From assembly GCA_963810755.1 (NCBI GenBank), contig CAWEOP010000001.1, positions 89,807 through 153,806 on the forward strand: a stretch of DNA of 64,000 bases, written 5' to 3'. This document shows positions 1 to 46,679 of this stretch, piece after piece; position 1 is the first letter of the stretch; the number at the start of each line of letters is the position of its first letter. This DNA comes from an uncultured Gammaproteobacteria bacterium (GTDB lineage Bacteria > Pseudomonadota > Gammaproteobacteria > Steroidobacterales > Rariloculaceae). The position numbers and the translations under genes are program-made. The notes below the pieces were generated by a model, which had not been told where the DNA came from, did no database searches, and saw nothing but the letters and a program-made list of their open reading frames with translations.

Positions 1-72
1 GCCGATCATCGACAGGAACAAGGCGGCGGCAGTCCGGGCGGCCGCGTGCCTCCGCAGCGACGAATGGTTCAT
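1..72 (-). CDS. 5' end of a gene running off the left edge (signal-peptide-like N-terminus MNHSSLRRHAAARTAAALFLSMIG...)
   Basis: Reverse-strand ATG at 72-70 followed by an Ala/Leu-rich hydrophobic stretch. Only 24 codons are visible, so the product is unknown. Confidence 0.25.
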   Translation of the reverse strand, partial: MNHSSLRRHAAARTAAALFLSMIG

Positions 73-338
73 TGGTTCCCCCTGAGCCGAAAGCCCGTTC
101 ACTTTACCACTGCGCCGCGCGGCGGGCGCCGTGCGGACACGACGGGCATCGTGCGGAACGCTGTAGTATCCTTTTCGCACACCGAATCGACCGCTTCGTA
201 AACCCTTCCGACACCGGTCCGGGCGCAGCAAAAAAAGACGCTTCGGGCGGCGAAGAGATCTGAACGACGGCCCGCGGCTTTGTCTAAGCCAATTGCCGCG
301 GTCGGTGCGGTGTGAGTCCAGGGGCTTCGGAGGATTGG

Positions 339-1142
339 ATGGCCGTCTATCAAAATTACTTGCGTGATCGAGCATCGAAGCTCGTCATCCTCGCGATCAT
401 CGCGCTCATCATTCAAGTCATCTACACCGCGTACGTGCGGCCGACCGCCGAAGCGTGGCGTTCCGAGCAACGTGCGATCGCGGCCCGGACGCCGGGCTAC
501 AGCCCGGCGCGCTCCATCTGGGTGATCATTCAGGATCCCGAGCAGGAAGCGACCATCATCGTCGCGATCTGGTCGATGATCCTGTCGGTCATGCGCTTCC
601 GCGAGCTCAAGGCACAACGCGCCCTGCTCAGCGAGGGCTACATGCAGCAGGCGCCGGGCGTCGTGATCTTGCCGAGCGACGCGCGCGAGTATCTGCGTAC
701 CTTCGAGAGTCTGCCGCCGGCGAAGCGCGATTCGGTGCTGCCGCGCGTGCTGGCAGCGGCGCTCAAACGCTTTAGCGCCACGGGCAACGTGCAGGATGCA
801 TCGCAAACCGTGCACAACGTCTGCGAGAGCGAGAACAACCGTTTGGACGCGGAGCTCGCGATCTTGCGCTTCAGCGTGTGGGTGACGCCCGCGCTCGGGT
901 TCGTCGGAACCGTCCGCGGTATCGGCTTGGCGCTGCAGGGCGCGGAGCTCGCCGTGAAGGGCGACACCGGTGCCGTCACGAGCGGCCTCGGCGTGTCGTT
1001 CAATTCGACGTTGGTCGCACTCACGCTGAGCATCTTGCTGATGTACACGCTGCACGAGATCCAGCTCGCTCAGGAGCGGCTCGTGCTCGACGCCGAGAAC
1101 TACGCCGACGAGGAGCTGATCAGCCGCTTGCACAGCGTTTGA
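339..1142 (+). CDS. MotA/TolQ/ExbB proton-channel family protein
   Basis: ORF 312..1142. The ATG at 339 follows GGAGGA (329-334). Four predicted TM helices with a ~100-aa loop between TM2 and TM3. The C-terminal core TPALGFVGTVRGIGLAL...FNSTLVALTLSILLMY resembles the MotA/ExbB channel helices. Confidence 0.7.
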   Translation: MAVYQNYLRDRASKLVILAIIALIIQVIYTAYVRPTAEAWRSEQRAIAARTPGYSPARSIWVIIQDPEQEATIIVAIWSMILSVMRFRELKAQRALLSEGYMQQAPGVVILPSDAREYLRTFESLPPAKRDSVLPRVLAAALKRFSATGNVQDASQTVHNVCESENNRLDAELAILRFSVWVTPALGFVGTVRGIGLALQGAELAVKGDTGAVTSGLGVSFNSTLVALTLSILLMYTLHEIQLAQERLVLDAENYADEELISRLHSV

Positions 1143-1183
1143 TTTCGAGCGGCGCGACGCCGCGTGTTTCTGAGGGGGAACAC

Positions 1184-1606
1184 ATGACCGTTTCACGGGC
1201 CGACCGGCTAGCGCTCGCGCTTCTCGCCGTTGCGGCGTTCGCGGCGTCGAGCGCCGTGAACGCGCACCACTCGTTCGCGATGTTCGACAACGAGAATCAG
1301 ATCAAGCTCAAGGGCACCGTCACGGACTTCCAATGGACCAACCCGCACGTCTACATCGAGGTCGACGCCTCGAACGTGTACGCGGACGACAAGGCCGTGA
1401 AGAATTGGACGATCGAGTGCGCGAACCCGGGAATCCTCAATCGCATCGGTTGGAAGTTCAACATGGTCAAGGCGGGTGACGAGGTCACTCTGATCGTCGC
1501 CCCGCTTCGCAGCGGCGAGCCCGGTGCGCTGCTGAAACAGATCACGTTGCCCGACGGCAAGGTGTTCGCGAACGGCGGTCCCGCCGGCCCCGCGAACATC
1601 CAGTAG
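1184..1606 (+). CDS. small secreted protein, DUF6152-like (copy 1)
   Basis: ATG at 1184. Signal peptide ends ...SSAVNA, then HHSFAMFD. FQWTNPH motif lies ~20 aa later. Three paralogs in the window share both motifs. The family name is from memory and needs an HMM check. Confidence 0.8.
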   Translation: MTVSRADRLALALLAVAAFAASSAVNAHHSFAMFDNENQIKLKGTVTDFQWTNPHVYIEVDASNVYADDKAVKNWTIECANPGILNRIGWKFNMVKAGDEVTLIVAPLRSGEPGALLKQITLPDGKVFANGGPAGPANIQ

Positions 1607-1684
1607 CGAGGTCGACGCCGATGCGACCGACGAATCCGACTGTGCCCGGGCCGAACCGCGGCACGCACGCGCCGGCCCCACGTC

Positions 1685-2473
1685 GTGGCGGCGGCGCTGC
1701 TCGCGCTCGTCGCGCTGCCGGCCGTGCACGCGCAATCACCCGACCGCAGCCGCTCGAGCGAATCCGCCGCCGGCCAGCCTGACTTCAGCGGCACATGGGA
1801 GCGCTGGACGCCGCCGCGCGACCCGAACGCGCCGCCGCGCGGCACGCCGGGCGCCGGGCTCGGGCCGACGTTCGGCGGTACGCCGCCGCCGCTCAAGCCC
1901 GAGTACGCCGCCGCGTACGAGGCCGAGGTCAAGACGCGTCAGGAAGCGGAGCGGCGTGGCGAGCCGATCCCGAGCGCGAACGCGCAGTGCATCCCCGAGG
2001 GAATGCCCGCGATGATGATCGCGTTGTTCCCAATGGAGGTGCTGCAGACGCGCGGCCAGCTCACGATCGTGCAGGAGGCTTTCAGTCAGATCCGCCGCAT
2101 CTACATCGGCGAGGACCCGCCCGCGATCGAGGATGCGGAGCCGTCGTTCTTCGGCCACTCCGGCGCGAAGTGGGACGGCGATACGCTCGTCGTCGAAACC
2201 GTCGGCATCAAGGAGAGCGTGCGCTATCGCAATGCGCCGCACTCGGACCAAATGCGCATCCGCGAGCGCATGCGCGCGCTCGACGCGAATCGCTTCGAGG
2301 ATCAGATCACGATCACGGATCCCGTGTATCTCGCGAGTCCGTGGTCTTGGACCTGGACGTATCAGCGAAAGCCCGGGTACAAGATGTACGAGTACGTCTG
2401 CGAGGACAATCGCGAGTTCGTCGATCCGAACACCGGGGCTCAACGGATGCGATTCAGGGACAAGGCGGAATAG
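1685..2473 (+). CDS. secreted protein of unknown function, partner of the DUF6152-like gene (copy 1)
   Basis: GTG at 1685 and signal peptide LLALVALPAVHA. Motifs QCIPEGMPAMM, KWDGDTLVVET, PHSDQM and YEYVCEDN are shared with four paralogs in the window. Confidence 0.8.
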   Translation: MAAALLALVALPAVHAQSPDRSRSSESAAGQPDFSGTWERWTPPRDPNAPPRGTPGAGLGPTFGGTPPPLKPEYAAAYEAEVKTRQEAERRGEPIPSANAQCIPEGMPAMMIALFPMEVLQTRGQLTIVQEAFSQIRRIYIGEDPPAIEDAEPSFFGHSGAKWDGDTLVVETVGIKESVRYRNAPHSDQMRIRERMRALDANRFEDQITITDPVYLASPWSWTWTYQRKPGYKMYEYVCEDNREFVDPNTGAQRMRFRDKAE

Positions 2474-2488
2474 GTTGGAGAGGTTCGC

Positions 2489-2935
2489 ATGCGAGAACGA
2501 ATAATTAGAACGTCGCTGGCCGTCATGCTGCTCGCGTGCGTCGCAGCGGGCGCGCACGCGCAAACGCTCACGCAGGCGAAGCTCGAGGCCTGGCTGTCCA
2601 GCTACGGCACCGCGTGGGAAATGCGCGACGCGGACCTCGCCGTGCGCATCTTCACCGAGAACGCGACCTATCGGGAGATGCCGTTCGAGGCGCCGAAAGC
2701 CGGGCGCGCGGGTATTCGCGAATACTGGGCAGGAGTGACGGCTGATCAGCGCGACGTGCAGTTCGACTCGAACGTGATCGCGGTGAACGGCAACACGGGC
2801 GTCGCGCACTGGTCCGCGAAGTTCAAGCTCGCGTCGAGCGGCGCGACGGTCGAGCTCGACGGCGTGTTCGTGCTCGAGTTCGACGCGAGCGGCCTCTGCT
2901 CGGGCTTGCGCGAATGGTGGCACGTGCGCGAGTGA
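2489..2935 (+). CDS. secreted SnoaL/NTF2-like fold protein
   Basis: Signal peptide (LAVMLLACVAAGAHA), ~125-aa mature protein. The pattern W..AW...D......F.E.A.Y...P...........YW is typical of NTF2-like/DUF4440 proteins. Confidence 0.6.
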   Translation: MRERIIRTSLAVMLLACVAAGAHAQTLTQAKLEAWLSSYGTAWEMRDADLAVRIFTENATYREMPFEAPKAGRAGIREYWAGVTADQRDVQFDSNVIAVNGNTGVAHWSAKFKLASSGATVELDGVFVLEFDASGLCSGLREWWHVRE

Positions 2936-3032
2936 GCGCGCGCGCCCAGTCGGCGGTATGACGGCCGCATGCACTTGGCGCGGAACTTGCTGATGTCCCC
3001 GTCGAGCTCCGCAAGCAACGACGAGGTCAATC

Positions 3033-3827
3033 GTGAGGAATGCCGCTTGGACCGTGATTCTGCTCGCCGCCGTGTGCGGATCGATTCTCCTCGAGATTCT
3101 CTCGGCGGGGTCCGGCCCGGTGGCCGCAACGTCCGGCTTTTTCTTGGTTTTTTGCGGAACACTGCTGATGGCGCGGCTCAGCCACTCGGCCGACGTGCTG
3201 CGCAGGCTCAAGGAAGCGCTGCTCGAACTGCGGCACGAGCGCGCGGCTGCGGCGGACGATGATCTGCGTCTGCAATCGTTCCTCAAAGCGGCAAGCTTTT
3301 TCCGCTACGGCAATATTCGGCCGGCCGAGGAGGCCGCGCGCAACATTTCGCGACCGGTTCTCCGGCGCGGCACGCAGCTCGTGCTCGACGGGTTCCAGCG
3401 GCCGCAGCTCGCGCTCGCGATGCAGCGACAAATCGCCGAGGAGCGCGAGCGCCTCGTGAGCCCGGTCGATCTGCTGCGCGCGATGTCGGGTTACGCGCCG
3501 ACGCTCGGCATGCTCGGCACGCTGCTCGGTCTCTCGCAGATGCTGTTCGGCGTCGGCACGGGCGACGTGGCGAGCATGGGAGCATCGATGGGCTTCGCGA
3601 TGACGACGACGGTCTACGGCCTCGTGCTCGCGAATTTGATCTTCAAGCCGCTCGCCTCGAAGATCGAGCAGCGCAACCGCCGTCAACTAGCGCAGAGCGT
3701 CGTCGATCTCCAGGCCGTGATGCTGCTCTTCGAGCGCCAGCACCCCGAGTACATCCGCGCAGTGATCAACGACACGCGCGAGCAGTACGTGCCGCCGCCC
3801 GCCGAGCTCGCGCGCGCGGTCGGCTGA
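3033..3827 (+). CDS. MotA-like stator/proton-channel protein
   Basis: GTG at 3033 with GAGG upstream. Two N-terminal TM helices, a cytoplasmic loop, then YAPTLGMLGTLLGL and MTTTVYGLVLANLIFKPLASKI, which match the MotA TM3/TM4 signatures. Confidence 0.8.
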   Translation: MRNAAWTVILLAAVCGSILLEILSAGSGPVAATSGFFLVFCGTLLMARLSHSADVLRRLKEALLELRHERAAAADDDLRLQSFLKAASFFRYGNIRPAEEAARNISRPVLRRGTQLVLDGFQRPQLALAMQRQIAEERERLVSPVDLLRAMSGYAPTLGMLGTLLGLSQMLFGVGTGDVASMGASMGFAMTTTVYGLVLANLIFKPLASKIEQRNRRQLAQSVVDLQAVMLLFERQHPEYIRAVINDTREQYVPPPAELARAVG

Positions 3828-3833
3828 GCCGCG

Positions 3834-4631
3834 ATGCGTTTTCGCAACCTCGCGCAAGGCGCTGACGACGGCGACGCCGAGTCGACCGCGTTGCTCGACG
3901 TCGGTTGGACCTCGGAGGATCGCGAGGACAACTGGCTGATCTCGTACGCCGACCTCTTGAGCGTGATCTTCGCGATGGTCGTGCTGCTCTTCGGGCGAAT
4001 GATGACGGTGAGCCCGCCGCTTGCCGAAGCCGACGAGCTCGACGCCGCCAGGTACGCCGAGCCGCCTAGCAGGATGATCACCGTGGACGGCCGTGCGGCC
4101 GCCGCGTCGACGCTTGCTGACGCGCCGACGCCTGCCGACGTGCCGACAGCTGCCGACGAGCCGACGCCCGAGGATCGGCTTGCGTCGCTCGTCGAGCAGC
4201 GCTTTCCCGGCCAGATCGAGACCCGGCGGCGCGAGCGTGGGCTCTCTCTCGCGATCCCGGCCGTCGCGTTGTTCGATTCCGCGCGGGCGCAGCTGCAGGA
4301 CTCCGCGGTTCCGCTGCTAGGCGACCTCGCGGCCACGTTGCGTGAGGTTGGCGACGCGCGGATCTCCGTCGAGGGGCATACCGACGACGTGCCCGTGCAG
4401 GGCGGCGTGTTCGACTCGAATTGGGATCTCGCCGCCGCGCGCGCCAATGCAGTGACGCGCTATTTACTGGCTCAGGGATTCACGCCGGCGCGACTGCAAT
4501 CGGTGAGCTACGCGGATACACGTCCCGTTGCGGACAACGCTACGGCCGAGGGCCGGGCCGCGAATCGCCGAGTCGAGCTGCAGATCGAGTTCGCGGCCGA
4601 CGCGCCGACGACGCTAGCCGCCGCGGACTAG
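3834..4631 (+). CDS. MotB/OmpA-family protein (stator peptidoglycan anchor)
   Basis: Starts 6 nt after the MotA-like gene. TM segment NWLISYADLLSVIFAMVVLLF carries the conserved Asp. OmpA-like C-terminus VEGHTDDVP...NWDLAAARANAV...NRRVELQI. Confidence 0.85.
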   Translation: MRFRNLAQGADDGDAESTALLDVGWTSEDREDNWLISYADLLSVIFAMVVLLFGRMMTVSPPLAEADELDAARYAEPPSRMITVDGRAAAASTLADAPTPADVPTAADEPTPEDRLASLVEQRFPGQIETRRRERGLSLAIPAVALFDSARAQLQDSAVPLLGDLAATLREVGDARISVEGHTDDVPVQGGVFDSNWDLAAARANAVTRYLLAQGFTPARLQSVSYADTRPVADNATAEGRAANRRVELQIEFAADAPTTLAAAD

Positions 4632-4677
4632 CTGCGCGAGCGGCCGCGGCCGCTGTGCGCGGGGCTGCGTTTGGCGC

Positions 4678-5460
4678 TCAGCGTGCGTCCGGTGTGACCG
4701 TGAGCTTGCCGTCGACGACGGGGTTGCGGTCGTTCTCGTGGCAGTCGCCGTGCACCATTCGATCGACTCCGGGCACGTGCTCGTACGGAATGGTCACCTT
4801 CCAGGGTTTCGCGAGCGCCGCCGGATCTTCCATCGTGAGCTCGTCTTCGATTCGCGAGGGGCTCACCATCCGGATTCGCTCTTTGTAGTGCGCGTTCTCG
4901 CTCAGCACGGGTAGAAAACGGCCGGCCTGCACCGCGATCGTGTCGACGACGAGCGTGTCGCCTTCCCAGTGTCCGACCGAGTCGCCCCACGGCGTGGCCC
5001 AGATGTCGTCCGGGCTCGGATGCGCGCGGCCGTCGGTGTAGATGTGCCGGACCTCGCGGCCGCCCGCGATCACGGCCGTCTCCTCGGGTGTGATCAGAAA
5101 CTGCAGCACCCAGGGCGACTCCATCATGTACGGGAACGGGAAACCGCATTCCTTGTCGTTCGCGCGCTCGGGGGCGTTGCGGACCGCGTTGACTCTAGCG
5201 GCCCACTCGGGCGTGTACGGCGCGCCGTTGAGCAGGTGCCGCGCGCGATCCGACGGATTCGGCGACCGGCCCGAAATGCTGAGCTCGTTCATGACGCCGT
5301 CGGCCGCGATCCAGATGCCCGTCCAGTTCGGCAACGCGGCGAAGGTCCGCGCGCGTGCGTCGCCGTTCGGCTGGGCGCCCGCCGCGCCGGCGAGCAGAAT
5401 CGCGGTCACGGCCGCTCGTGCGGCGATTCGCGCAGCGACTCGCGCGAAAACCGGGCTCAT
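4678..5460 (-). CDS. secreted partner protein of the DUF6152-like gene (copy 2)
   Basis: Start MSPVFARV... at 5460 overlaps the upstream stop as ATGA (5457-5460). Signal peptide present. Motifs ECGFPFPYMM, GHWEGDTLVVDT and HGDCHENDRN. Confidence 0.8.
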   Translation of the reverse strand: MSPVFARVAARIAARAAVTAILLAGAAGAQPNGDARARTFAALPNWTGIWIAADGVMNELSISGRSPNPSDRARHLLNGAPYTPEWAARVNAVRNAPERANDKECGFPFPYMMESPWVLQFLITPEETAVIAGGREVRHIYTDGRAHPSPDDIWATPWGDSVGHWEGDTLVVDTIAVQAGRFLPVLSENAHYKERIRMVSPSRIEDELTMEDPAALAKPWKVTIPYEHVPGVDRMVHGDCHENDRNPVVDGKLTVTPDAR

Positions 5461-5834
5461 GGTGTCTTCTCGAGCGACTTGCCGCCCGCTCCCGTCGCCG
5501 AGACGAACACGCCGGCCTTGAGCGTGGCGTCCCGCGTGGGATGAATGATCACCTCGATCGGGTCGCCGGGCTTCAACGTGCCGGGCCGCCAGCCGTGTTG
5601 GAACAGCTGCATCGGCGCGCCCATCTCGACGCTCCATTCTTCTTGGGCGCCGTCCGCGCCGGCCACGGTCATCTGAATCCAACAGTGCGGATTCGTCCAT
5701 TGATATTCTTTGACTGTGCCCTTGAGCGTGAGGGACTTGTCGCTATCGAACATCGCGCCCGAGTGGTGCGCGGCGGCGGGCGCCGCGATCAGCAACAGCG
5801 CAACGACGAAGCAGACTGTGCGGCCCGCCGGCAT
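5457..5834 (-). CDS. small secreted protein, DUF6152-like (copy 2)
   Basis: Signal peptide ...IAAPAAA, then HHSGAMFD, followed by YQWTNPH. 125 aa. Confidence 0.85.
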   Translation of the reverse strand: MPAGRTVCFVVALLLIAAPAAAHHSGAMFDSDKSLTLKGTVKEYQWTNPHCWIQMTVAGADGAQEEWSVEMGAPMQLFQHGWRPGTLKPGDPIEVIIHPTRDATLKAGVFVSATGAGGKSLEKTP

Positions 5835-5938
5835 GCCGATTCTCCTCGAACGAGATCCACCGAAGTCTCTGCGCGCAAGCTACCCCTTGCCGGCGCGGCT
5901 GCGCAAGGGAGGGGAGGAGCCGGTCAATGCGTCGCCGG

Positions 5939-7129
5939 TTAGCCGGTGCGACGCTTTGCGGCGGGAGCGGCAGCCAGCGCGGATATCGCGATCAGTAGTG
6001 TGTCGGTCACCGGCTCGCGCAGCTCGCGTGCGTGTACCGTGCAATCGACCGCGAGCGTCTTGCCGGCGGCTGCTTCGCGAACCCAGAATCGCGGCGGCTG
6101 TTTGAACGCGGGACTGGACTCGCCCGCCGCGAGTGAGCCGACTTCGGCTTGGACGCCGATCGTATGCCCCCGGACATTCACCAGCGGATACGCTTCGTCG
6201 TGAAGTTGCGCGCCGGGCGCCGCCACTAGGTGCTCCGTAACGCCGATTCCCGGAAGCCGCGGAATCGTCAATTCCACGAACACACCATGCAGCGCGCTCG
6301 CGCCGAGATTGCTGACGACGATGTTGAGCTTGTGCGTGCGGACCTCGAACTCATAGTGCTCGTCCGCCGCGCGATAGTCGTGCGGCGCCTTCCCGATGAG
6401 GAGCCGCAGCGATTCTTCGCTGTGCGGCTCGTAGGCGCCGTCCATTCCGAACTGCTGCGCGTACATCAAGCGCGCGAACTGCGTTTCCGTTCGGCCGAGG
6501 ATTTCTTTCGCGCTTTCTTTGGCGTCGAGCATCTTGCGGAGCTGCCGTGCCGCCTTGGCCGACGGTAGGCCTTCGAGCGGTAACACCGGCAAGCTGATCT
6601 CCGTCTCGATCCGCTCGCCCGCGAAGCCGACACGAACCGCGTTCGGCTCGCTTGCGACCGCGCTCTTCGCGGCGAACATTCGTTGCAAGTCGCCGCGCAG
6701 CAGAGGGAGATGTCGTGTTCCGCGCCGCACCCAACCGGTGCCCGCGGGCGATCCCGCAACGCTGCGCGCGAGTAGATACGGGGGGTCGTCGCACTCGGTC
6801 AAGCAGAGTAGCGCGACCAACTCATCGTGGACCTTGAGCGCACGCAACGTCATCTTGAGCTGCGGCTCGATAGAGTCTGCCAGCAACCGCGGTAGCGAGC
6901 CCTTGAGCTCGCTCACCGACGCGGCCGAGATGCCGGTCAGCACGCGAGGTGAACCGGGAACGTCGCGTACGCCGAAGCAGAGGAAACGCGGCCCGCCGAC
7001 GTCCGCATTCGCGAGCGCGAGCAGGTCTTGCAATAGTTGGACGTGGTCCTGCGGCGCGTAGACGTGCTCGCGAAACGCGAGTCCGGAATGCGCGCTTTCG
7101 CTCAGCACGAGGTCGTCGAGGCGGGCCAT
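5939..7129 (-). CDS. hypothetical protein with an N-terminal AlbA_2/Schlafen-like putative DNA-binding domain
   Basis: ATG at 7129 (MARLDDLVLSESAHSGLAFREHVY...). The stretch LLQDLLALANADVGGPRFLCFGVRD resembles the AlbA_2 core (..FANT.GG.l.iGV.D). The C-terminal ~270 aa are not recognisable. The listed 892-aa ORF upstream of 7129 is a high-GC run-on. Confidence 0.6.
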   Translation of the reverse strand: MARLDDLVLSESAHSGLAFREHVYAPQDHVQLLQDLLALANADVGGPRFLCFGVRDVPGSPRVLTGISAASVSELKGSLPRLLADSIEPQLKMTLRALKVHDELVALLCLTECDDPPYLLARSVAGSPAGTGWVRRGTRHLPLLRGDLQRMFAAKSAVASEPNAVRVGFAGERIETEISLPVLPLEGLPSAKAARQLRKMLDAKESAKEILGRTETQFARLMYAQQFGMDGAYEPHSEESLRLLIGKAPHDYRAADEHYEFEVRTHKLNIVVSNLGASALHGVFVELTIPRLPGIGVTEHLVAAPGAQLHDEAYPLVNVRGHTIGVQAEVGSLAAGESSPAFKQPPRFWVREAAAGKTLAVDCTVHARELREPVTDTLLIAISALAAAPAAKRRTG

Positions 7130-7210
7130 GGTCGACGGAAAGTTTAGCCGCGGTTGCGGCCTCGCGACTTCGACCAGTTCAAGGTTTCGCCGAGCTCGAT
7201 TGACGCGTCC

Positions 7211-7248
7211 CCCGGCGGCGTTCGCGGTCGTGACCGCTCGCCGCCGGG
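7211..7248 (-). terminator. GC-rich nested hairpin downstream of the MetE-like gene
   Basis: CCCGGCGGCG (7211-7220) pairs perfectly with CGCCGCCGGG (7239-7248), and there is an inner GCGGTC/GACCGC stem. No T-run follows, so it is not a canonical intrinsic terminator. Confidence 0.35.
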
Positions 7249-7272
7249 TTCGACGCGCAACCTGCCGCGGCG

Positions 7273-8553
7273 TTATTTCTTCGACTTCTTGGTGCTCGTC
7301 TTCTTCTTGCTCGCGGTCTTCGCGGCCTTGGCGGGCTTCGCGGCTGCCTTCGCAGCAGCTGCCGCGGGCGGGGCGCTCCGCACGTCGAGCAGCGTGAGCT
7401 TCGGATCGGCCGCGATGCATTCCGCGACCGGGATGCCGTGCTCCTTGCGCACGATGTTCGTGCCCTGCACGAGCGATACCATCTTGTAGAGCGCGTGCCG
7501 GCGCGCCATGCCCTCGCGGCCCATGCCGCAGTCGGACGACAGCACGAGCCGCTCGAGCGGGATGTGCTTGAGCGCGAGCCGGATGTGATCGGCGACCATG
7601 GCCGGGCTCTCGACTTGCAGCGAGTGGTGGTCGATCACGCCGATCGCGATCTTCATGTCCGTGATCTCTTTGCCGATCGCCGGGAGATCCATGCCGCCCG
7701 AGCTGCACGACTCGAACGTGATCACGTCCGCATCCACCTTGTTCAGAACTTTGAGCGCGGGCTTGTAGCTCTGCACTTCGGCGAACATGCGTTGCTGCGA
7801 CGGATTGCCCCAGCACGTGTGGCACCAGACTTCCGTTTTGGCGCGCAGCCCGCGCACGGTGTTGTTGAACACCTCGAGCATGAACTCGGGGTTGATCACC
7901 TTGTCGACGACGCCGCGCGCCGCGAGCAAGTGGATCTGCGGCTCTTCCATCTGGATGACCGGGCAGCCCGCGTCGGCGACCGCGTGGAGCTCTTCGTTGA
8001 ACGCGTTGCTGAGCGCCCAAATGCGCTCGCGCACGTCCTTGTAGTAGAAGTCCTGCACCGCGAACGCGACGAGCTCGGGCGTGACCGTGCCGAACTTGAG
8101 CGGCTTGTCGGTCATGCGCTGCGCCGCCTTGTACATCTGCGCGTATTGCATGTTGCCGCGGCCGACGGGGCCGACGATGCTCGGCATCAAGCGCGCTTCG
8201 ATGTAGTCGTGGAGGATGTGTCCGCGCGGGAAGCCGATGCCGCCGCCGCCGATCGGCGCCATCTTCGGAACGCCGTCGAAGCCTGCCATGTGGAACGGCG
8301 GATAGCTCGTCCAGCTCTGGCCGCCGATGTCCTGCGTGAAGCGCGCGTCGCCGTCGGTCACGATGTCGAGGCCGGCCATCGCCTGCTCGTTGAAATACAC
8401 GGCGAGCGCGTCCTCGTACTGCTCGCGGAAGCGCGTTTCGACCATCGCCTGCAGAAACGACTTCAGGCCGAGATTTTCCGTGTACCAGCTCGGCCGCGGC
8501 AGCGATCCGGTGATAGTCGTGGGCAGCAGTTGGGTCGCGGTAGCGCGTAGCAT
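7273..8553 (-). CDS. cobalamin-independent methionine synthase (MetE C-terminal domain)-like methyltransferase with a Lys/Ala-rich tail
   Basis: Start MLRATATQLLPTTITGSLPRP at 8553. Zn-ligand-like motifs HTCWGN and SSDCGMG. C-terminus AAAAAKAAAKPAKAAKTASKKKTSTKKSKK. Confidence 0.8.
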   Translation of the reverse strand: MLRATATQLLPTTITGSLPRPSWYTENLGLKSFLQAMVETRFREQYEDALAVYFNEQAMAGLDIVTDGDARFTQDIGGQSWTSYPPFHMAGFDGVPKMAPIGGGGIGFPRGHILHDYIEARLMPSIVGPVGRGNMQYAQMYKAAQRMTDKPLKFGTVTPELVAFAVQDFYYKDVRERIWALSNAFNEELHAVADAGCPVIQMEEPQIHLLAARGVVDKVINPEFMLEVFNNTVRGLRAKTEVWCHTCWGNPSQQRMFAEVQSYKPALKVLNKVDADVITFESCSSGGMDLPAIGKEITDMKIAIGVIDHHSLQVESPAMVADHIRLALKHIPLERLVLSSDCGMGREGMARRHALYKMVSLVQGTNIVRKEHGIPVAECIAADPKLTLLDVRSAPPAAAAAKAAAKPAKAAKTASKKKTSTKKSKK

Positions 8554-8589
8554 TGTGGGTACCTGTTTTGGGTTTATGCCGGCGTTGTG

Positions 8590-8618
8590 CCGACATTTTC
8601 TCTGAGGGCGGATACAAT
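8590..8618 (+). promoter_or_regulatory. candidate sigma70-type promoter for the EboE-like operon
   Basis: CCGACA (8590-8595), a 17-nt spacer, then TACAAT (8613-8618) in the divergent intergenic region. Pattern match only. Confidence 0.25.
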
Positions 8619-8756
8619 ATTGCAGAAGCCGCTCACCCACAACCCTGGACAACCCGCACTACTTCGCCCGCACGCAAGCGACGGAGCGATGAATGAAGAG
8701 CGGAAAACCAAGCGGCGAACAGAGTGGTTCGCCTGCGCAGACTGGAGGAAACACAT

Positions 8757-9959
8757 ATGGATTTGGGCAATGGCCTAGGTCATCTGACCTATTCGACTCT
8801 CGTGCATCCGGGCGACACCTGGGCCGAGATGTGGGACAGCTTGAACCGCTACGTGCCGCAGGTGAAAGCGCGCGTGTCGCCGCACAAGTCCTTCGGTGTG
8901 TCGCTGCGCTTGTCGGCTTCGTCGGCGAAAACGCTCACGGGCGACCCTGGCGAGCGCGAGCGCCTCAAGGACTTCCTCAAACAGCACGACATGTACCTGT
9001 ACACGGTGAACGCGTTCCCTTACGGGCCGTTCAAGAACCGCGTCGTGAAGAAGGACGTCTACGAGCCCGACTGGAGCACCGATCTGCGCTCGACGTACAC
9101 GATGCAGGTCGCGGACATTCTCGCGGATGTCGCCGCACCGCACGTGCAGCCGTCGATTCAGAGCCCGCCGCTCGGCTTCAAGCCGAAAGTCACCGGCCCC
9201 GAGTACGTCAACGAGTTCACGCGGCACGTCATCGCCACGGTCGCGCACCTCGTGCAGCTCGAGAAGCGCACCGGCCGAACGGTCACGCTGTGCCTCGAGC
9301 CCGAGCCCGCGTGCTTCCTCGAGACCACCGAGGAAGCCGTCGACTACTTCACGAACCACCTCTATGCGAGCGAAGCCGTGCGCATGCTCGTCACGGCCAC
9401 GGGCTTGAACAAGTCGCAGGCCGAAGGCGCGCTGCGCAAGCACCTCGGCATGGTCTACGACATCTGCCACCAAGCGGTCGAGTACGAAGACATCGGCGCC
9501 AGCTTGCGCAAGCTCGCGGACAACGGGATCCCGGTGTTCAAGCTCCAGGAAGCCGCTGCGCTGCGCGTGCCGAACGTGACGAAAGAGACCGTCGATGCGA
9601 TGAGGCCGTTCGCCGACACGGTCTATCTCACGCAGACGATCGAGAAGATCGACGGCAAGCTCAATCGGTACCTGAATCTCGAAGACGCGTTCGCCGCGTT
9701 CGAGAAGAACCCGAAGCTCAAGCGCGAGTGGCGTACGCACGTGCACGTGCCGGTGTTCCTGGACAAAATCGGCGAGCACTTCGAAACCACACGCTTCGCG
9801 ATCGAGGACGCGCTCAAGTTCCACAAGAAGTACAAGCTCTCGCCGCAGCTCGAGATCGAGACGTACACGTGGGACGTGTTGCCGGACTCGATGAAGACGG
9901 GCTCGATCGTCGACTACGTAGTGCGCGAGCTCGATTGGGTGAAAGGCCAGCTCGTCTGA
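8757..9959 (+). CDS. xylose-isomerase-like TIM-barrel protein, EboE-like
   Basis: ATG at 8757 after GGAGGA (8743-8748). N-terminal LTYSTLVHPGDTW, FGVSLRLS and NAFPYGPFKNRVVKKDVYEPDW resemble the EboE (metabolite traffic protein) family as I remember it. Confidence 0.6.
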   Translation: MDLGNGLGHLTYSTLVHPGDTWAEMWDSLNRYVPQVKARVSPHKSFGVSLRLSASSAKTLTGDPGERERLKDFLKQHDMYLYTVNAFPYGPFKNRVVKKDVYEPDWSTDLRSTYTMQVADILADVAAPHVQPSIQSPPLGFKPKVTGPEYVNEFTRHVIATVAHLVQLEKRTGRTVTLCLEPEPACFLETTEEAVDYFTNHLYASEAVRMLVTATGLNKSQAEGALRKHLGMVYDICHQAVEYEDIGASLRKLADNGIPVFKLQEAAALRVPNVTKETVDAMRPFADTVYLTQTIEKIDGKLNRYLNLEDAFAAFEKNPKLKREWRTHVHVPVFLDKIGEHFETTRFAIEDALKFHKKYKLSPQLEIETYTWDVLPDSMKTGSIVDYVVRELDWVKGQLV

Positions 9960-9989
9960 GCAGCAACTAATACCAACAAAGGATCGTCA

Positions 9990-10865
9990 ATGAAGGTAGG
10001 TTTCATCGGTCTCGGCCGAATGGGTCAAGCGATGGCCGCGCGCATCTTGGGCGGCGGTCACGAGCTCGTCGTCTACAACCGCACGCGCGCGAAGTGCGCC
10101 GACCTCGAGAAGGCCGGCGCGAAGGTCGCGGACTCGATGGCCGAGGCCTGCAAAGGCCGCGAGGTCGTGATCAGCATGGTCACGGACGACAAGGCGCTGC
10201 TCGAGGTCGTGAAAGAAGGCGTCGTGCCGGGGCTGCCGAAGGGCGCGATCCACGTCGCGATGGGCACGCACAGCGTCGCGGCGATTCGCGAGATCGGTCC
10301 GCTGCACGACAAGGCCGGGCAAGTGCTCGTCGGTGCGCCGGTGCTCGGCCGTCCCGAGGCAGCCGCCGCGGGCCAAGTCGGCGTGGTCGCGGCGGGGCCG
10401 AAAGACGCGGTCGCGAGGGTCGCGCCGCTGTTCCAGTTGATCGGCCGGCGCACGTTCGACGCGGGCGAGAAGCCCGAAGGCGCGTCGGTCGTGAAGCTCG
10501 CGAACAACATGATGATCGGCTGCGCGATCGAGGCGATGGGCGAGGGCTTCTCGCTCGTGCGCAAGTACGGTGTCGACCCCGCCACGTTCTACGACGTGAT
10601 GACCGACGGTCTGTTCTCGGCGCCCGCCTACAAGGTATACGGCAACATCATCGTGAAGCAGGCGTATGCGACGGCCGGGTTCACGACGACGCTCGGCTTG
10701 AAGGACGCGAATCTCGCGATGGCGGCCGCGCTCGCGGCGAGCGTGCCGCTGCCGAGCCTGAACGTTTATCGCGACCGCTTGCTCGGCGCGATCGCGCACG
10801 GCGAGGCGGAACAGGATTGGGCCGTGATGGCGCGTGATCAGGCGCGCGCGAGCGGGCTCGAATAG
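9990..10865 (+). CDS. NAD(P)-dependent beta-hydroxyacid dehydrogenase (3-hydroxyisobutyrate/6-phosphogluconate dehydrogenase-like)
   Basis: N-terminal MKVGFIGLGRMG Rossmann motif, then VKLANN and GLKDANL motifs. 291 aa. Confidence 0.85.
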   Translation: MKVGFIGLGRMGQAMAARILGGGHELVVYNRTRAKCADLEKAGAKVADSMAEACKGREVVISMVTDDKALLEVVKEGVVPGLPKGAIHVAMGTHSVAAIREIGPLHDKAGQVLVGAPVLGRPEAAAAGQVGVVAAGPKDAVARVAPLFQLIGRRTFDAGEKPEGASVVKLANNMMIGCAIEAMGEGFSLVRKYGVDPATFYDVMTDGLFSAPAYKVYGNIIVKQAYATAGFTTTLGLKDANLAMAAALAASVPLPSLNVYRDRLLGAIAHGEAEQDWAVMARDQARASGLE

Positions 10866-10885
10866 TTTGTTGGAGGGATCGCAGC

Positions 10886-16180: not shown

Positions 16181-16259
16181 ACGCTTCCGGGTGACTCCAG
16201 CCGGTAAACTGCTCGCTGCCAAGCATACCGCGAGCCCGAGCGATACCCGATGGAACAAT

Positions 16260-16607
16260 ATGAAAGACGCAGCCAGCACCGATCCGGCCAAGCAAGCTCG
16301 CGACGCGCTCGCAGCCGCGTATGCCGATCTCACGGTGGCGTCGAAGCGTGGGATAGCCGAGGACGGCAAGATCTTGTTCGGCGCGGCGGCGGCGATCGAC
16401 GTGGCAGTGGAGCTCCTGATGCCGCCCAACGTAGACCGAGAGTCGGCGGCGCAGAGCTGTCACGAGGCGCTGAAGCTCGTCAAGTTGACGCGGGCGTACG
16501 CGCAGCGCGACGCGGGCGGAAGCGTCGCGCAGCTGCTGGACGAGGCAATGAAACGAATTGCGGACGCGCTGAAGCTGCTGAAGTTGCTCAAACTCGAAGC
16601 GTCGTGA
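16260..16607 (+). CDS. hypothetical small helical protein
   Basis: ATG at 16260 and a coding-like codon pattern. No family recognised. Confidence 0.35.
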   Translation: MKDAASTDPAKQARDALAAAYADLTVASKRGIAEDGKILFGAAAAIDVAVELLMPPNVDRESAAQSCHEALKLVKLTRAYAQRDAGGSVAQLLDEAMKRIADALKLLKLLKLEAS

Positions 16608-16637
16608 CGTGCGGCGCCGGGTTCGGTAACGCTCTTC

Positions 16638-22524: not shown

Positions 22525-22664
22525 CTCGCCGCGGGTTGCATGGCCGAGTCTGTGTCATTTCGTGACGCGAACGGCACTACCGCACCGGAGTCGTTCTCGC
22601 CAGCCGCCGCGTTTGAAACTACTATCGCCGTTCGCTGGCGCGTAGCCGCAAAGGCAGGGTCGAT

Positions 22665-27056: not shown

Positions 27057-27239
27057 GGCGTCCCCCGCCTAAGTGCACTAGTACAATAATGCACTTATGC
27101 CGCTCGGTCAATTGGAAGAGCTGGGCGGCGCTCGAATTTGCGACGCGTATCACGCGACGCCGGCGCAAAGCGTCCGATCGATGCGTCAAATGCGCGCCGC
27201 CGTCGCAGCGCAACAACGCGCGGAACCCGGAGTGGCGAG

Positions 27240-28395: not shown

Positions 28396-28557
28396 CGCGG
28401 GCTCCCGGACGCGCTGTGGGATGGCTCGTACACTAGCACGCGATCGCGCGACGCAGCGTGCAGCACTCACGCTTTAGCCGCGCATCGATTGCCGCTACGC
28501 TATTGCGTAGGCTGAGCACTCGTGACCGTGACTTCCCTGATTCTCTCGGAGCATAGA

Positions 28558-29316
28558 ATGAAGAGGACCTTTCTCGGGGCGGCCGCTACGGCGGCGATCC
28601 TGGCCGCGGGATGTGGGCCGTCGCAGCCCCCGCCCGTCGACGCACCCGTCGATTCCGCGGCGCAGGCCTGGACGGCGCTCGCGAAGCTCCCGAACTGGAG
28701 CGGTGTGTGGGAGGTCGACTGGCGCAACGCGCGCAAAGCGGCGCCGCGCCCGATGATGAAGCTCACGCCCGAATGGCAAGCGAAGGCCGACGCGTATCGG
28801 GCGGCGCAGGCCAAGGGCGAGAACCTGCAGAGCGAGGCAGCTAACTGCGTGCCGCCGGGCCTGCCGGGGATCATGAGCCAACCGTATCCGATTCAGTTTC
28901 TCTACCAGCCGGACAAGATCGTGATGCTGATCGAGACGTTCATGCAGTTCCGGCAGATCTGGATGGACGGCCGTCCCCATCCCGACGACCCGGACCTCAC
29001 GTTCTACGGCGACTCGATCGGCCATTGGGAAGGGGATACGCTCGTCATCGACACTGTCGGATTGAGCCCGCAGAACCGAATCGCGCCCGGCATTGGGCAC
29101 GGCGATCAGTTGCACGTCGTCGAGCGGATCCGCCGCGTCGACGCTGACTGGCTCGAGATCGAGACCACGCTCACCGATCCCGAGGTGCTCGCGGAGCCAT
29201 ACACGAGCACGGCCTCCTTCAAGCATCTCGACGACGAGATTCGCGAATACATTTGCCTCGAGAACAACCGCGACAGCGCCGACGAGAACGGCCGTCCCGG
29301 CATCGAGTTGGAGTGA
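28558..29316 (+). CDS. lipoprotein partner of the DUF6152-like gene (copy 3)
   Basis: ATG at 28558 and lipobox ILAAGC. Motifs NCVPPGLPGIM, GHWEGDTLVIDT, GHGDQL and EYICLENNRD. Confidence 0.85.
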   Translation: MKRTFLGAAATAAILAAGCGPSQPPPVDAPVDSAAQAWTALAKLPNWSGVWEVDWRNARKAAPRPMMKLTPEWQAKADAYRAAQAKGENLQSEAANCVPPGLPGIMSQPYPIQFLYQPDKIVMLIETFMQFRQIWMDGRPHPDDPDLTFYGDSIGHWEGDTLVIDTVGLSPQNRIAPGIGHGDQLHVVERIRRVDADWLEIETTLTDPEVLAEPYTSTASFKHLDDEIREYICLENNRDSADENGRPGIELE

Positions 29317-29318
29317 TC

Positions 29319-29726
29319 ATGAGCACGCATCGATTCCTCGCGCTCGCGGCCTCGGCCGCGCTCGTCGCCGCCGCCGCACCGGCGCTCGCGCACCATTCCA
29401 CGGCGATGTTCGACTTCGCTAAGACCATCGAGATCACGGGCACCGTGCAGGACTTTCAATGGACGAACCCCCACACGTGGACGAACGTCGCGGTCGAGGG
29501 CGGAGACTCCGCCGGCGTCTACGGTCTCGAGGGCATGAGCCCGAGCTACCTCGCGCGCAACGGTTGGACCAAGCGCACGCTGAATCCCGGCGACAAGCTC
29601 ACGTTCGCAGTGCATCCGCTCAAGGACGGACGCAAGGGCGGCTTCATGGTCAGCGCGACGCTCGCGGACGGCACGGTGCTCTACAACTTGCCGCGCCGTG
29701 CGGAGCCGTCGGACGAATTGCGCTAA
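29319..29726 (+). CDS. small secreted protein, DUF6152-like (copy 3)
   Basis: ATG lies 2 nt after the upstream stop. Signal peptide ...AAPALA, then HHSTAMFD and FQWTNPH. Confidence 0.85.
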   Translation: MSTHRFLALAASAALVAAAAPALAHHSTAMFDFAKTIEITGTVQDFQWTNPHTWTNVAVEGGDSAGVYGLEGMSPSYLARNGWTKRTLNPGDKLTFAVHPLKDGRKGGFMVSATLADGTVLYNLPRRAEPSDELR

Positions 29727-31807: not shown

Positions 31808-32220
31808 TCACTTCGGTTGGCTAGACCCCAATGGCCGCGGCGGCGGCGCGTCGCCGGGGCCGAGCACCGTGCCGTCGGCGAGCGTGATCGTCACGAGCGA
31901 GCCGTTCGGCCGGCCGTCGAGCAGCGGGTTCACGATGACGACCACGCTGTCGCCGGGCTGCGAGCGACGTCTTCTTCCAGCCGGTGCGCGCCATCATGTT
32001 GGGGCTGCCGCACTCGACGCCCCAATCGGTCGCCTGACCCTTTTCGTCGGACACCGTCACCTGGATCCACGCGTGCGGGTTCGTCCACTGAAAATCCTTG
32101 ACGGTCCCCGTGAGAGTCACTTTCTTCGTGCGGTCGAAGCTCGCGAACGAATGATGCGCGAACGCGGGTCGACGCGCCCGCGGCGACGGCGGCGGCGATC
32201 AAGATGGCCGTGATTCTCAT
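31808..32220 (-). pseudogene. DUF6152-like gene (copy 4), two frameshifts
   Basis: My translation gives MRITAILIAAAVAAGA.. then, in another frame, ..AFAHHSFASFDRTKKVTLTGTVKDFQWTNPH.., and a third frame for ..QPGDSVVVIVNPLLDGRPNGSLVTITLADGTVL. Confidence 0.7.
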
Positions 32221-32261
32221 GCGTAGTCCTCGCGGCGCCACTGCGACGCTTCCGGGGGCGC

Positions 32262-33087
32262 TCACTCGCGACGCGGATTGTCGCCGCAAAAGTACTCGAG
32301 CATGTCGATGTCGGGGCGGCGCTGGAAGTAGTGTTTGAGCACGACCTTCTCAGTGTAGTACTTCGGGTCGTCGATCGTGAGCTCGTCCTCGAGCAGCTCG
32401 CCGTTCGCGACGAGCCGGAAGCGTTCGACGAGATGCAGCTGCGTCGCTGAGCGGAAAGCGCGGGTCGTCGTCGATGCTGCTGACTTTCGCGTTCGAGCCG
32501 ACGCCGTTCGCCGCGCGAGCCTTGCCGTTCGTGCCGACGGTATCGACGACGAGCACGTCGCCGTCCCAGGTCCCGATCGAATGGCCGTTCCACGTCGCGA
32601 CGATCTCGTCTTCGGGCGGGTGGCCGCGGCCGTCGGTGTAGATCCGCCGCGGGATGCCGCTCGCTTCGCGCACGATCACGATCTGGTCCGGCGCCTCGAG
32701 CAGCTGGAGCGGGAAGATGCCGATCTCCCACATGTGAAACACGGGGCCGCCGGGCGTGCATGCCGTGAAGTTGCTGTGATCGTTCAAACGCTGCGATTCG
32801 GCCGCGCCGGCCGCGGTGAACGGCGGATTTCTGCGGCCACGGCGTGTTCGACCACGGCGCGGGCCCGGCTGGGTCCTCGAAACGTGCCGAGTGGAACCCA
32901 CACGCCCGTGAACCCGCGTTCGGACGCGGTGAGCTTGGACGCGGCCGCAGGCGAAGGCGCGCTGCCGGCACCGTGTCGCCCGCGCCGCGCGGGCCGCCGC
33001 AGCCCGCGACCGCCAGCGCCGCCGCAACGAGCAGCGCTTGGCCGTATGCGCGAGGCCGCCGCGTCCGCGACGTCGTGCGGCCGCTAC
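32262..33087 (-). pseudogene. partner gene (copy 4), multiply frameshifted, start codon not identifiable
   Basis: Fragments in different frames: lipobox-like ALLVAAALAVAGC, ..ACTPGGPVFHM.., GTWDGDVLVVDT, then QLHLVERF...MLEYFCGDNPRRE with the stop at 32264-32262. Confidence 0.6.
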
Positions 33088-45854: not shown

Positions 45855-46679
45855 TTACTTCTTCTCGGTAGCGGGCTCGACCGCGGTCTTCTCGAGCTGC
45901 TCCATCCAGATGCCTTCGGAGCAGTTGTCCTCGAGCATCACGTTCTCGATCTTGCGGTAGAGCGTCGTGACCCGGTAGTCCTTGTCGACGTACATTCCGG
46001 GGTCGGTGATGTACATCTCGTTGACGAGCAGGGTGCCCTCGACCTTCGGCGGCCGATCGGGGCGAAGCCCCGTGATCTTGAACGCGCTCGCGTCCTTCAG
46101 ATACCAGCGCTCGACGATCTTCATCTGATCGCTGTGCGGCCAGCGCGGCGCGTACCACTCGGTGATCTTCGTGGTCTCGATCACGAGCGTGTCGCCTTCC
46201 CAGCGGCCGACGGAGTAGCCGACGCGTTGGCTCGGGAAGTCGTCGGGCGGCTTGCGCCCGTCGAGGTAGATACGCCGCGACTGCTTCGCGAGCTCCGACA
46301 GCAGCGTGATCCGGTTCGGCTGCTGCACGATCTCCATCGCGGCGCCGCCGATGCCCCACATCACGGTGGGCATCCCGGGCTCGACGCAGCTGCCGTTCGC
46401 CTCGAGATTCTCGACGTCGTACTTCGCGATGAACTCGTCGGTGATCTTCTTGCCTTCCGCCGTGCGCGTCGGCTCGATCGGAATGAAGAACGGCGCGCCG
46501 AGGCGGTCGTGCTGCACCATGCCCCAGACGCCTTCGAGATTCGGCGGGTCGGCCGCGTACGCGTTACCGAGCACCAGCAGCAGGGTCGGCGTCGAGATGA
46601 GTAAGCGCTCCGTAAGAGCGCGACAAACACCGCGCGTCTCGCGCCGGCGAGCTCCGGGATGCATGCCCGTCCCCCTCAT
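45855..46679 (-). CDS. secreted partner-family protein (copy 5, no adjacent DUF6152-like gene)
   Basis: Motifs SCVEPGMPTVM, GRWEGDTLVIET, PHSDQMKIVERW and EDNCSEG. The start is uncertain (M1 or M6). Confidence 0.75.
   Translation of the reverse strand: MRGTGMHPGARRRETRGVCRALTERLLISTPTLLLVLGNAYAADPPNLEGVWGMVQHDRLGAPFFIPIEPTRTAEGKKITDEFIAKYDVENLEANGSCVEPGMPTVMWGIGGAAMEIVQQPNRITLLSELAKQSRRIYLDGRKPPDDFPSQRVGYSVGRWEGDTLVIETTKITEWYAPRWPHSDQMKIVERWYLKDASAFKITGLRPDRPPKVEGTLLVNEMYITDPGMYVDKDYRVTTLYRKIENVMLEDNCSEGIWMEQLEKTAVEPATEKK

Follow-up and report, generated by a model that had tools for sequence, protein, structure and literature searches.

A six-gene locus with two MotA/TolQ-type channel genes in an uncultured member of the Rariloculaceae: a probable juxtaposition of three independent modules

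The 5:2 rotary-motor family includes the MotAB/PomAB flagellar stators as well as the ExbBD-TonB and TolQRA-Pal systems, whose A subunits belong to one superfamily (PF01618). Here we consider six plus-strand open reading frames (ORFs) at 339-4631 of a 64,000-nucleotide stretch of DNA from an uncultured gammaproteobacterium of the family Rariloculaceae (GenBank assembly GCA_963810755.1, contig CAWEOP010000001.1, positions 89,807 to 153,806 of the forward strand). The whole of this stretch is called the window, and positions are counted from its first letter. The six genes, designated g1 to g6, encode two A-type channel proteins, one MotB-type B subunit and three secreted proteins; an inverted pair of genes downstream is designated g7 and g8.

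In a 2025 survey (PMC12505986), flagellar stators, termed FIT, were distinguished from ExbB/TolQ-like transporters by an expanded cytoplasmic domain of the A subunit and by a plug/linker and an OmpA-homologous domain in the B subunit. It was also reported in a computational study of the same year (PMC12204202), in the passages drawn on here, that vWA proteins tethered by a transmembrane (TM) helix, mostly occurring as heterologous pairs, are encoded in close linkage with a tolQ-like gene, tolR and exbD being absent. These vWA proteins were proposed in the same passages to be the dimeric B subunits of a motor, hereafter the TPH-vWA motor.

Set against these systems, the six genes are probably a lineage- or genus-specific juxtaposition of three independent modules and not one new machine. 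The first module, g1, would supply the pentamer of A subunits in a 5:2 motor of the TolQ-like kind. As B subunits this motor would usually have two vWA proteins, each with a transpore helix that resembles that of ExbD/TolR and bears an Asp; all are encoded in a kinase/TPR/PEGA-FGE-sulfatase/FHA cluster that ends with the gene for an OmpA lipoprotein. In the genus studied here, g1 would have been parted from the vWA genes and would still work with them from elsewhere in the genome. The second, which takes in g2-g3, g7-g8 and another three copies within the window, would be an autonomous multi-copy periplasmic pair of a DUF6152 OB-fold protein with an N-terminal His-His and a calycin-like barrel protein with a Met-rich motif and a disulfide. 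This pair may bind a small ligand or metal, and the SnoaL-like g4 would be a local add-on. The third, g5-g6, would constitute a bicistronic MotA5:MotB2-type stator, ion-driven, peptidoglycan-anchored and PomAB/TGI4-like, most likely driving a presumed flagellar rotor encoded elsewhere. The six genes are as follows.

312/339..1142, plus strand: g1, 267 aa, four TM helices, divergent A subunit of the MotA/TolQ/ExbB superfamily
1184..1606, plus strand: g2, secreted DUF6152 protein, mature N-terminus HHSFAMFD, FQWTNPH invariant, predicted OB-fold
1685..2473, plus strand: g3, secreted 262-aa partner of DUF6152, N-terminal helix and beta-barrel
2489..2935, plus strand: g4, secreted SnoaL_2/NTF2-like protein (Pfam SnoaL_2, E 7.6e-14)
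3033..3827, plus strand: g5, 264 aa, MotA/PomA-type stator A subunit, four TM helices, full-length cytoplasmic domain
3834..4631, plus strand: g6, MotB-type B subunit with an Asp-bearing TM helix, a long linker and an OmpA-type peptidoglycan-binding domain

Gene order at the locus and in related genomes

The ORF listing of the window reproduces the six co-directional genes of the first-pass annotation and their gaps of 41, 78, 15, 97 and 6 nt, and the domain calls made there for the six proteins were correct when checked with Pfam; the family assignments are a matter of observation. It was proposed in that annotation that the genes encode a single envelope machine driven by proton motive force (PMF), in which the MotAB-like stator and/or g1 energises or moves the products of g2-g4. 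A new PMF-driven envelope machine with clients would, if true, be a new branch of the 5:2 rotary-motor family. In addition to the common strand and the short gaps (6-97 nt), signal peptides on all three uncharacterised proteins (g2, g3 and g4), retention of the order in two other loci (L007 and L026) and the lack of Ton, Tol and flagellar genes nearby speak for it. A Pfam scan of about 57 proteins predicted in the window turned up no flagellar, Ton or Tol protein, in agreement with the earlier remark that flagellar, TonB, ExbD, TolR and Pal genes are locally absent.

For comparison, one genome per GTDB species was scanned with a g1 alignment, which gave 19 g1 loci (18 labelled as uncultured Gammaproteobacteria metagenome-assembled genomes, or MAGs, and one as Rhodospirillaceae). 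Arrangements were then read from tblastn searches in which every window protein was compared with these loci and with contigs found by exact-protein look-up, and the following were observed.

Window, L007 (g1 99%, g5 92%, g6 77% identical) and L026 (g5 81%): six-gene order
L005 (g1 91%): g1-g5-g6-MetE (minus strand), no g2-g4, no g7-g8
L022 and L023 (g1 69% and 85%): g1-g2-g3, a TAT-signal protein, ... MetE (minus strand), no g4-g6
L006: g1-g2-g3 only
L018-L021: g1 without any other window gene; an OmpA-domain gene upstream of g1 in L019 and L020
12 of the 19 species: a different conserved cluster (kinase/FHA/vWA) around g1

By blastn, L005 aligns to window positions 328-1142, 2973-4605 and 7268-11910, the window holding in addition 1143-2972 (g2-g4) and 4606-7267 (g7, g8 and a gene of AlbA_2-like type). 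The alignments of L022 and L023 cover g1-g3 and resume at about 7380, without g4-g8, and the extra segment of the window relative to L022 is 2465-7383. One syntenic frame runs across these loci, from g1 to a MetE-like gene and the genes beyond, with the MetE-like gene as the right anchor common to L005, L007, L022, L023 and L026. Because the insertions and deletions of L005, L022 and L023 fall within this shared frame, the g1-MetE interval is a variable slot, in which cargo modules have been gained and lost independently. The boundaries of the modules, and the independence of each module in other genomes, are observed directly.

This independent loss of modules within one syntenic frame (L005, L022 and L023) is a first point against the single machine, which we regard as very improbable; others arise from each module below. 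The six-gene order was not found beyond the window, L007 and L026, and it is broken in L005, L006, L022, L023 and the wider samples. The first-pass annotation had itself named a lack of conserved synteny outside this genome as grounds for giving up its model, and this is largely what was found: the order is kept intact in only two close relatives, and each module is separate elsewhere. Its statement that it knew of no described system with this composition is true for the sole reason that the composition is a juxtaposition, of a part of a described kind (MotAB/PomAB-type stator), one of a recently described kind (TolQ-like partner of TPH-vWA proteins) and an autonomous DUF module. The main value of the case is therefore negative, in that tight same-strand spacing in one genome misled. 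What novelty is left lies in the displacement of g1 and in the module of DUF6152 and its partner, with their predicted OB-fold and calycin-like barrel.

Two observations weigh against a simple juxtaposition. The order is retained in three contigs whose proteins are 77-99% identical, co-directional and separated by short gaps, which leaves room for co-transcription of the six genes in this genus. Moreover, g1, g2 and g3 are adjacent in seven contigs (window, L006, L007, L022, L023, L026 and L032), down to about 59% identity of g3, which is more than a very recent accident, though the whole frame is syntenic there.

The sequences that flank and separate the six genes are as follows.

1..72, minus strand: 5' end of a divergent gene, starting MNHSSLRRHAAARTAAALFLSMIG..., the N-terminus of a further g3-like (partner-family) protein
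73..338, no strand: divergent intergenic region, 266 nt, upstream of g1, likely promoter region
1149..1163, plus strand: hairpin, perfect 6-bp GC stem GCGGCG-CGA-CGCCGC, then GTGTTTCTGA; 7 nt past the g1 stop
4678..5440, minus strand: g7, second partner-family (g3-like) gene, found by tblastn of g3 against the window (31% identity), convergent with g6
5457..5834, minus strand: g8, second DUF6152 gene (Pfam DUF6152, E 1e-33, 116 bits), mature N-terminus HHSGAMFD
5939..7183, minus strand: Schlafen/AlbA_2-like gene (Pfam SLFN_AlbA_2, E 4.7e-4, below cut-off), lower G+C content at third codon positions (GC3)
7273..8652, minus strand: Meth_synt_2 (MetE-like) gene (Pfam E 5e-23; blastn collinearity; L005 gene table)

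No plus-strand ORF enters from the left side and the divergent gene starts at about 72, so that g1 is the first gene of any unit. From the layout of L007 and L026, the divergent gene was assigned to a third DUF6152 pair, situated left of the window. Its orthologue in L007 (8945-9844, minus strand) starts MNHSSLRRHAGLRTAAAVLLSMIG, matches g3 and g7 by tblastn and has a DUF6152 gene behind it; the layout left of g1 is the same in L026, a further DUF6152 pair lying just left of g1 in both. A promoter scan found no consensus sigma-70 site in 73-338, and promoter and terminator counts were those expected by chance. The hairpin at 1149-1163 is located in the g1-g2 gap, immediately ahead of the ribosome-binding site of g2, and may, as a hint, be a weak terminator or attenuator that damps read-through from g1 to g2; terminator-like sites in the region number 4 against a shuffled expectation of 4.6, which is not above chance. 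On the downstream side, g7 and g8 form an inverted DUF6152 plus partner pair directly 3' of g6 (4678-5834, minus strand), which was absent from the first-pass annotation. The g7 ORF as listed extends to 5700, but the gene itself probably begins just below the stop codon of g8.

The TolQ-like subunit g1 and its usual partners

The ATG at 339 is the likely start of g1 because the homologues are 267 aa long. The protein matches Pfam MotA_ExbB with 44 bits. Membership of g1 and g5 in ordinary TolQ/ExbB clusters had been named at the outset as a result that would tell against the single machine; the NCBIfam tolQ model (TIGR02796, cut-off 221) gives scores of 18.3 and 19.4 bits (18 for g1), and g1 is not an ordinary TolQ/ExbB protein. 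With g1 alone no PDB sequence match was obtained, and the profile of its family reached TolQ at E 0.13, which is not significant. The resemblance to ExbBD-TonB and TolQRA-Pal thus consists of PF01618 membership, the 5:2 logic and TolQ as the sole, weak PDB profile match. On the other side stand the tolQ scores of 18-19 bits, the four TM helices of g1 instead of three, and the absence of ExbD/TolR, TonB/TolA, TolB and Pal among the scanned window proteins.

A total of 2430 homologues of g1 were found, the top 120 at 73-99% identity. In the family alignment the pore motif PALGFVGTVRGIG and the NST of TM4 are invariant across contexts, as are the pore Thr/Ser positions of g1 (G190-T191 and N222-S223-T224). 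A single g1 copy per genome was found in the 19-species scan. In 12 of these 19 species the g1 orthologue is the eighth gene of a conserved nine-gene cluster, in the order Pkinase, TPR, PEGA/FGE-sulfatase, small secreted protein, FHA, vWA, vWA-like, g1 and GlyZipper/OmpA lipoprotein, followed by bioD-bioF-Lon. Both vWA proteins of the cluster start with ...F[ST]MSFLDA[IV]..GFG...LLF, an ExbD/TolR-like helix with a conserved Asp, for example MRRRSREINVFTMSFLDAITAGFGCVVLLF. In some lineages the second vWA paralogue has lost the Asp of the transpore helix, having FLSAIT or FLAAIT in place of FLDAIC, and such a pair would give a B-subunit heterodimer with a single proton-binding Asp. The features concerned are located as follows.

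L001 1327-11722, also L002, L008-L017, L024 and L025: nine-gene cluster around the g1 orthologue, PEGA/FGE-sulfatase protein of about 813 aa
L002 7179-7343, L003 1322-1486, L004 3593-3757, L017 2660-2839: vWA paralogue without the Asp

On sequence grounds, the clusters around the g1 orthologues match the TolQ-like/TPH-vWA family in the passages of PMC12204202 drawn on here. As in that motor, the genes directly ahead of the g1 orthologues (69-87% identical) are two vWA genes with an ExbD/TolR-like, Asp-bearing helix, no tolR or exbD gene is present, and the pore Thr/Ser residues are conserved in g1. The window differs in having neither the vWA pair nor the kinase, FHA, PEGA-FGE and OmpA genes, g1 lying instead between DUF6152 pairs. 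The STK/FHA/FGE-sulfatase/OmpA-lipoprotein cluster of these soil Gammaproteobacteria also goes past the account given in those passages of PMC12204202, and it adds signalling (STK/FHA) and OmpA components to the idea of a TPH-vWA/TolQ-like motor outlined there.

The cluster genes (kinase, FHA, vWA, GlyZip/OmpA, bioDF and Lon) were not found in the window, and the paired vWA genes are absent also next to g1 in L005, L007, L022, L023 and L026. Since one g1 copy was found per genome, the window g1 is an orthologue of the TPH-vWA-motor family members, unlinked from its usual partners, with the system itself not encoded at this locus. That g1 orthologues have other, conserved partners is a further point against the single machine. 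The window and its relatives also offer a clean natural experiment, in which a TolQ-like A subunit whose gene normally comes after paired TPH-vWA genes remains subject to very strong purifying selection once its linkage to them is lost.

Two other explanations start from the displaced g1. It could be supposed that g1, g5 and g6 make up a three-gene motor, in which two A-type paralogues share or compete for one MotB-type B subunit, and that g2-g4 were inserted later. The three genes are indeed contiguous in L005 (gaps of 104 and 9 nt), the g2-g4 segment (1143-2972) falls exactly between the g1 stop and the region upstream of g5 in the blastn alignment, and in this lineage no B-type gene belonging to g1 lies close to it. 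However, g1 orthologues at 82-85% identity and with an invariant pore pair with TPH-vWA genes in 12 of 19 species. The g5-g6 pair occurs without g1 in L027, L028, L111 and a JGI contig, and g1 without g5-g6 in L006, L018-L023 and all loci with the kinase/FHA/vWA cluster. BLASTP also detects no similarity between g1 and g5 beyond TM3-TM4, and we give this explanation little credence.

An equally slight chance is left to a rewiring, in which g1 lost its vWA partners and joined a genuine operon with the DUF6152, calycin-like and SnoaL-like proteins and the MotAB-like pair as a lineage-specific PMF-driven system, where g6 could be the B subunit for both A-types. A milder novelty is more probable than such a rewiring, namely that DUF6152 and its partner form an unrecognised, widespread and heavily duplicated module for handling a ligand or metal.

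The secreted proteins and the DUF6152/partner module

The assignment of g2 to DUF6152 (PF19649) is clear (E 1.4e-28, 99 bits, gathering cut-off 27). In its AF2 model the mature domain has a pLDDT of 85-93, and Foldseek returned the OB-folds of SSB, PriB and the LysRS anticodon-binding domain. For g3, no Pfam or NCBIfam match was obtained, and its 2500 homologues are all annotated as 'hypothetical'; the family alignment shows two invariant Cys and a C-x-P-x-GMPxMM motif. The AF2 model of g3 (pLDDT 79.5) gave weak matches to FABP/CRBP calycins, with a TM-score of up to 0.59, and comparison with viral structures by Foldseek was uninformative. It counts against these fold predictions that the matches are weak (E 4e-4 for g2, E 3e-3 for g3) and that the g2 model was built from a 4-sequence paralogue alignment. 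The in-frame stretch ahead of the GTG start of g3 (1607-1684) encodes the Arg-rich sequence …RTAARTRRPHV, which resembles the n-region in homologues (271-286 aa) with longer signal peptides and contains no canonical start codon. Either an unusual start or a sequence error may account for this 5' region.

A metagenome scan with the g3 alignment gave 80 loci, with at least 1.7 kb of upstream sequence in 42 and at least 1.5 kb of downstream sequence in 38. The pairing of DUF6152 with a protein of about 260 aa, already suspected from the window, is borne out, as a DUF6152 gene adjoins the g3-family gene in 73 of the 80, usually immediately upstream. Against a single machine, g1 was seen in one of the 80 loci and g4, g5 and g6 in none; even at 81-82% identity, relatives of g3 are found in DUF6152 pairs whose neighbours are unrelated and include no motor gene. 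With regard to g4, it was found at this position only in the window, in L007 (by tblastn) and in L026 (as a Pfam-annotated gene).

By tblastn, the 64 kb of the window contain five partner-family genes and four DUF6152 genes in all, in both gene orders and on both strands. Beyond g2-g3 and g7-g8, the copies are the following, with the mature N-termini of the DUF6152 proteins listed last.

28522..29726, plus strand: third pair in the window, partner then DUF6152, near a Rieske/VanA oxygenase gene and a metallo-beta-lactamase-fold gene, no motor gene
31821..33027, minus strand: fourth pair, partner and DUF6152, in broken frames (pseudogenes or assembly frameshifts)
45855..46679, minus strand: fifth partner-family gene, beside an outer-membrane-protein beta-barrel gene, no DUF6152 match beside it
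1265-1290, 5745-5768 (minus strand) and 29391-29420: DUF6152 mature N-termini

Besides the oxygenase, metallo-beta-lactamase-fold and outer-membrane barrel genes just listed, dehydrogenase genes also neighbour the other window copies. On the evidence of the metagenome loci, DUF6152 and its partner form an autonomous, often duplicated two-gene periplasmic module. At a density of about one pair per 13 kb in the window, adjacency to any given gene is unremarkable and expected by chance, which again disfavours the single machine.

In all the DUF6152 copies, predicted signal-peptide cleavage leaves His-His-Ser-x-Ala-Met-Phe-Asp as the mature N-terminus, and QWTNPH is invariant, which suggests an N-terminal metal site on the putative OB-fold. 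That the pair handles a periplasmic ligand or metal is a reasonable inference from the models and these motifs. In three related loci, the DUF6152 pair beside g1 is preceded, a few kb upstream, by NicO-type Ni/Co transporter genes and a gene for an RcnR/CsoR-type metal repressor; this proximity may be coincidence or may hint at a metal link.

L006 4031-5300; L022 3157-4354; L023 4051-5256: NicO/RcnR genes

By analogy, we presume that the closest point of reference would be the CusF-type periplasmic metallochaperones with an OB-fold, and a copper-related, CusF-like role for DUF6152 is put forward as an idea only, prompted by the His-His N-terminus, the Met-rich partner and the NicO/RcnR genes nearby. 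With CusF, g2 would share the small secreted OB-fold (predicted for g2) and conserved His and Trp, and its partner g3 has a Met-rich motif; it differs in that CusF is not in the top 50 Foldseek matches of the g2 model. A literature search for DUF6152 returned no papers. The pair is thus a robust, very abundant and uncharacterised periplasmic module, with a partner family for which no Pfam model exists.

The MotAB-type pair and other features of the window

The Pfam score of g5 against MotA_ExbB is 79 bits. Its residues 16-239 align with 17-238 of the MotA structures 8ucs/6ysf (E 2.5e-22), and residues 80-245 with PomA 8bri (E 1e-18). The TM3/TM4 signatures ascribed to g5 in the first-pass annotation (YAPTLGMLGT and FKPL) are present, as are the NWLISYADLL and GHTDDVP...NRRVELQI motifs of g6. 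Residues R91 and E99/E100 of g5 align with R88 and E96/E97 of PomA, of which R88 and E96 (R90 and E98 in Escherichia coli MotA) are the charged residues that contact the rotor protein FliG. Across 27 members of the g5 family, down to 50% identity, R91, E99 and the prolines of TM3/TM4 do not vary. The g6 protein matches Pfam OmpA (E 1.7e-19) and MotB 6ysl (E 1.8e-22), with its TM Asp aligned with the Asp of Bacillus subtilis MotB, and has a linker of roughly 60-90 residues. Because the g5-g6 gap is 6 nt, translational coupling is suggested.

Outside the six-gene order the pair stands by itself among unrelated neighbours in four contexts, namely L027 (68% identity), L028 from Ca. Thiodiazotropha (55%), a JGI contig (63%) and L111 (55%), as would not be expected of parts of a single machine. 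In each of the contexts examined (L005, L026-L028, L111 and the JGI contig), an OmpA gene comes after the g5 homologue. In soil and symbiotic Gammaproteobacteria the pair defines a MotAB clade that is well conserved and stands alone.

Judged by these sequences, g5-g6 is most likely a flagellar-type stator. With MotAB/PomAB of the FIT, TGI4 type (PMC12505986; 8ucs, 6ysf, 6ysl and 8bri) it shares the four TM helices, TM3/TM4 prolines and rotor-contact Arg/Glu of g5, the TM Asp, long linker and OmpA-type peptidoglycan-binding domain of g6, and an adjacent, nearly overlapping gene arrangement. The features of both proteins fit the FIT marks of that survey, with a weak match for the plug. It differs in the low identity (about 25-30%), in scores below the equivalog cut-offs, in a sub-threshold MotB_plug match and in the lack of flagellar neighbours in the contexts seen. 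The best NCBIfam matches of g5 are PomA, MotP and MotA, the top one at 87 bits against a cut-off of 341, with no equivalog passed; g6 reaches 148 bits for MotD (cut-off 283) and 20.3 bits for Pfam MotB_plug (cut-off 24). That both proteins fall far under every flagellar equivalog cut-off, and that the pair never adjoins flagellar genes in the six contexts seen, speak against a flagellar assignment.

These same two observations favour a stator that is peptidoglycan-anchored and ion-driven yet powers some other envelope process. Chemotaxis genes are likewise missing from the neighbourhood in the six contexts, and no flagellar gene was found among the scanned proteins of the 64-kb window or in about 10 kb left of g1 in L007 and L026. 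Orphan MotAB-like pairs in non-flagellated relatives are known in outline. On the other hand, stator genes of Vibrio and Pseudomonas are also situated away from flagellar clusters, so that missing flagellar context is weak evidence against a flagellar role. Furthermore, g5 is built like MotA/PomA over its full length and its rotor-contact Arg/Glu do not vary within the family, and the long linker and OmpA-type domain of g6 are listed as flagellar-specific in PMC12505986. The family is also present in Thiodiazotropha, whose genomes carry fliP (PMC12278820). A non-flagellar stator is accordingly considered unlikely, yet clearly less so than the single machine, the three-gene motor or the rewiring.

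A Zorya or other defence motor was also tried and rejected, the PADLOC matches being marginal or driven by the OmpA domain, with no PADLOC match for g1-g4. Like ZorAB, g5-g6 is a MotAB-like pair outside a flagellar context, and g6 matches ZorB models through its OmpA domain; unlike in ZorAB, g5 matches ZorA at E 2e-3 over the pore, and there is no long ZorA tail and no ZorC, ZorD or ZorE.

Elsewhere in the window, several genes are split across frames (16250-19174, 22617-23544, 26956-28470, 62082-63321 and 31821-33027). Among them are those for an HrpB helicase (of which only HrpB_C is intact), an NAD_binding_2/NAD_binding_11 protein, a Tle1-like phospholipase and an OEP outer-membrane factor. 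Such breaks point either to frameshift errors in a MAG assembled from long reads or to pseudogenes, and ORF boundaries in the window need care. The phospholipase gene (26956-28470, minus strand) encodes a Tle1-like effector domain of the type VI secretion system (T6SS), and no other T6SS gene was present among the scanned window proteins. Finally, the Schlafen/AlbA_2-like gene at 5939-7183, a stretch within which no high-GC3 ORF was found, is without a counterpart in L005 and in L007, where window positions 5813-7269 are lacking and 140 bp stand in their place. The gene has the look of a recent insertion confined to this genome or strain.

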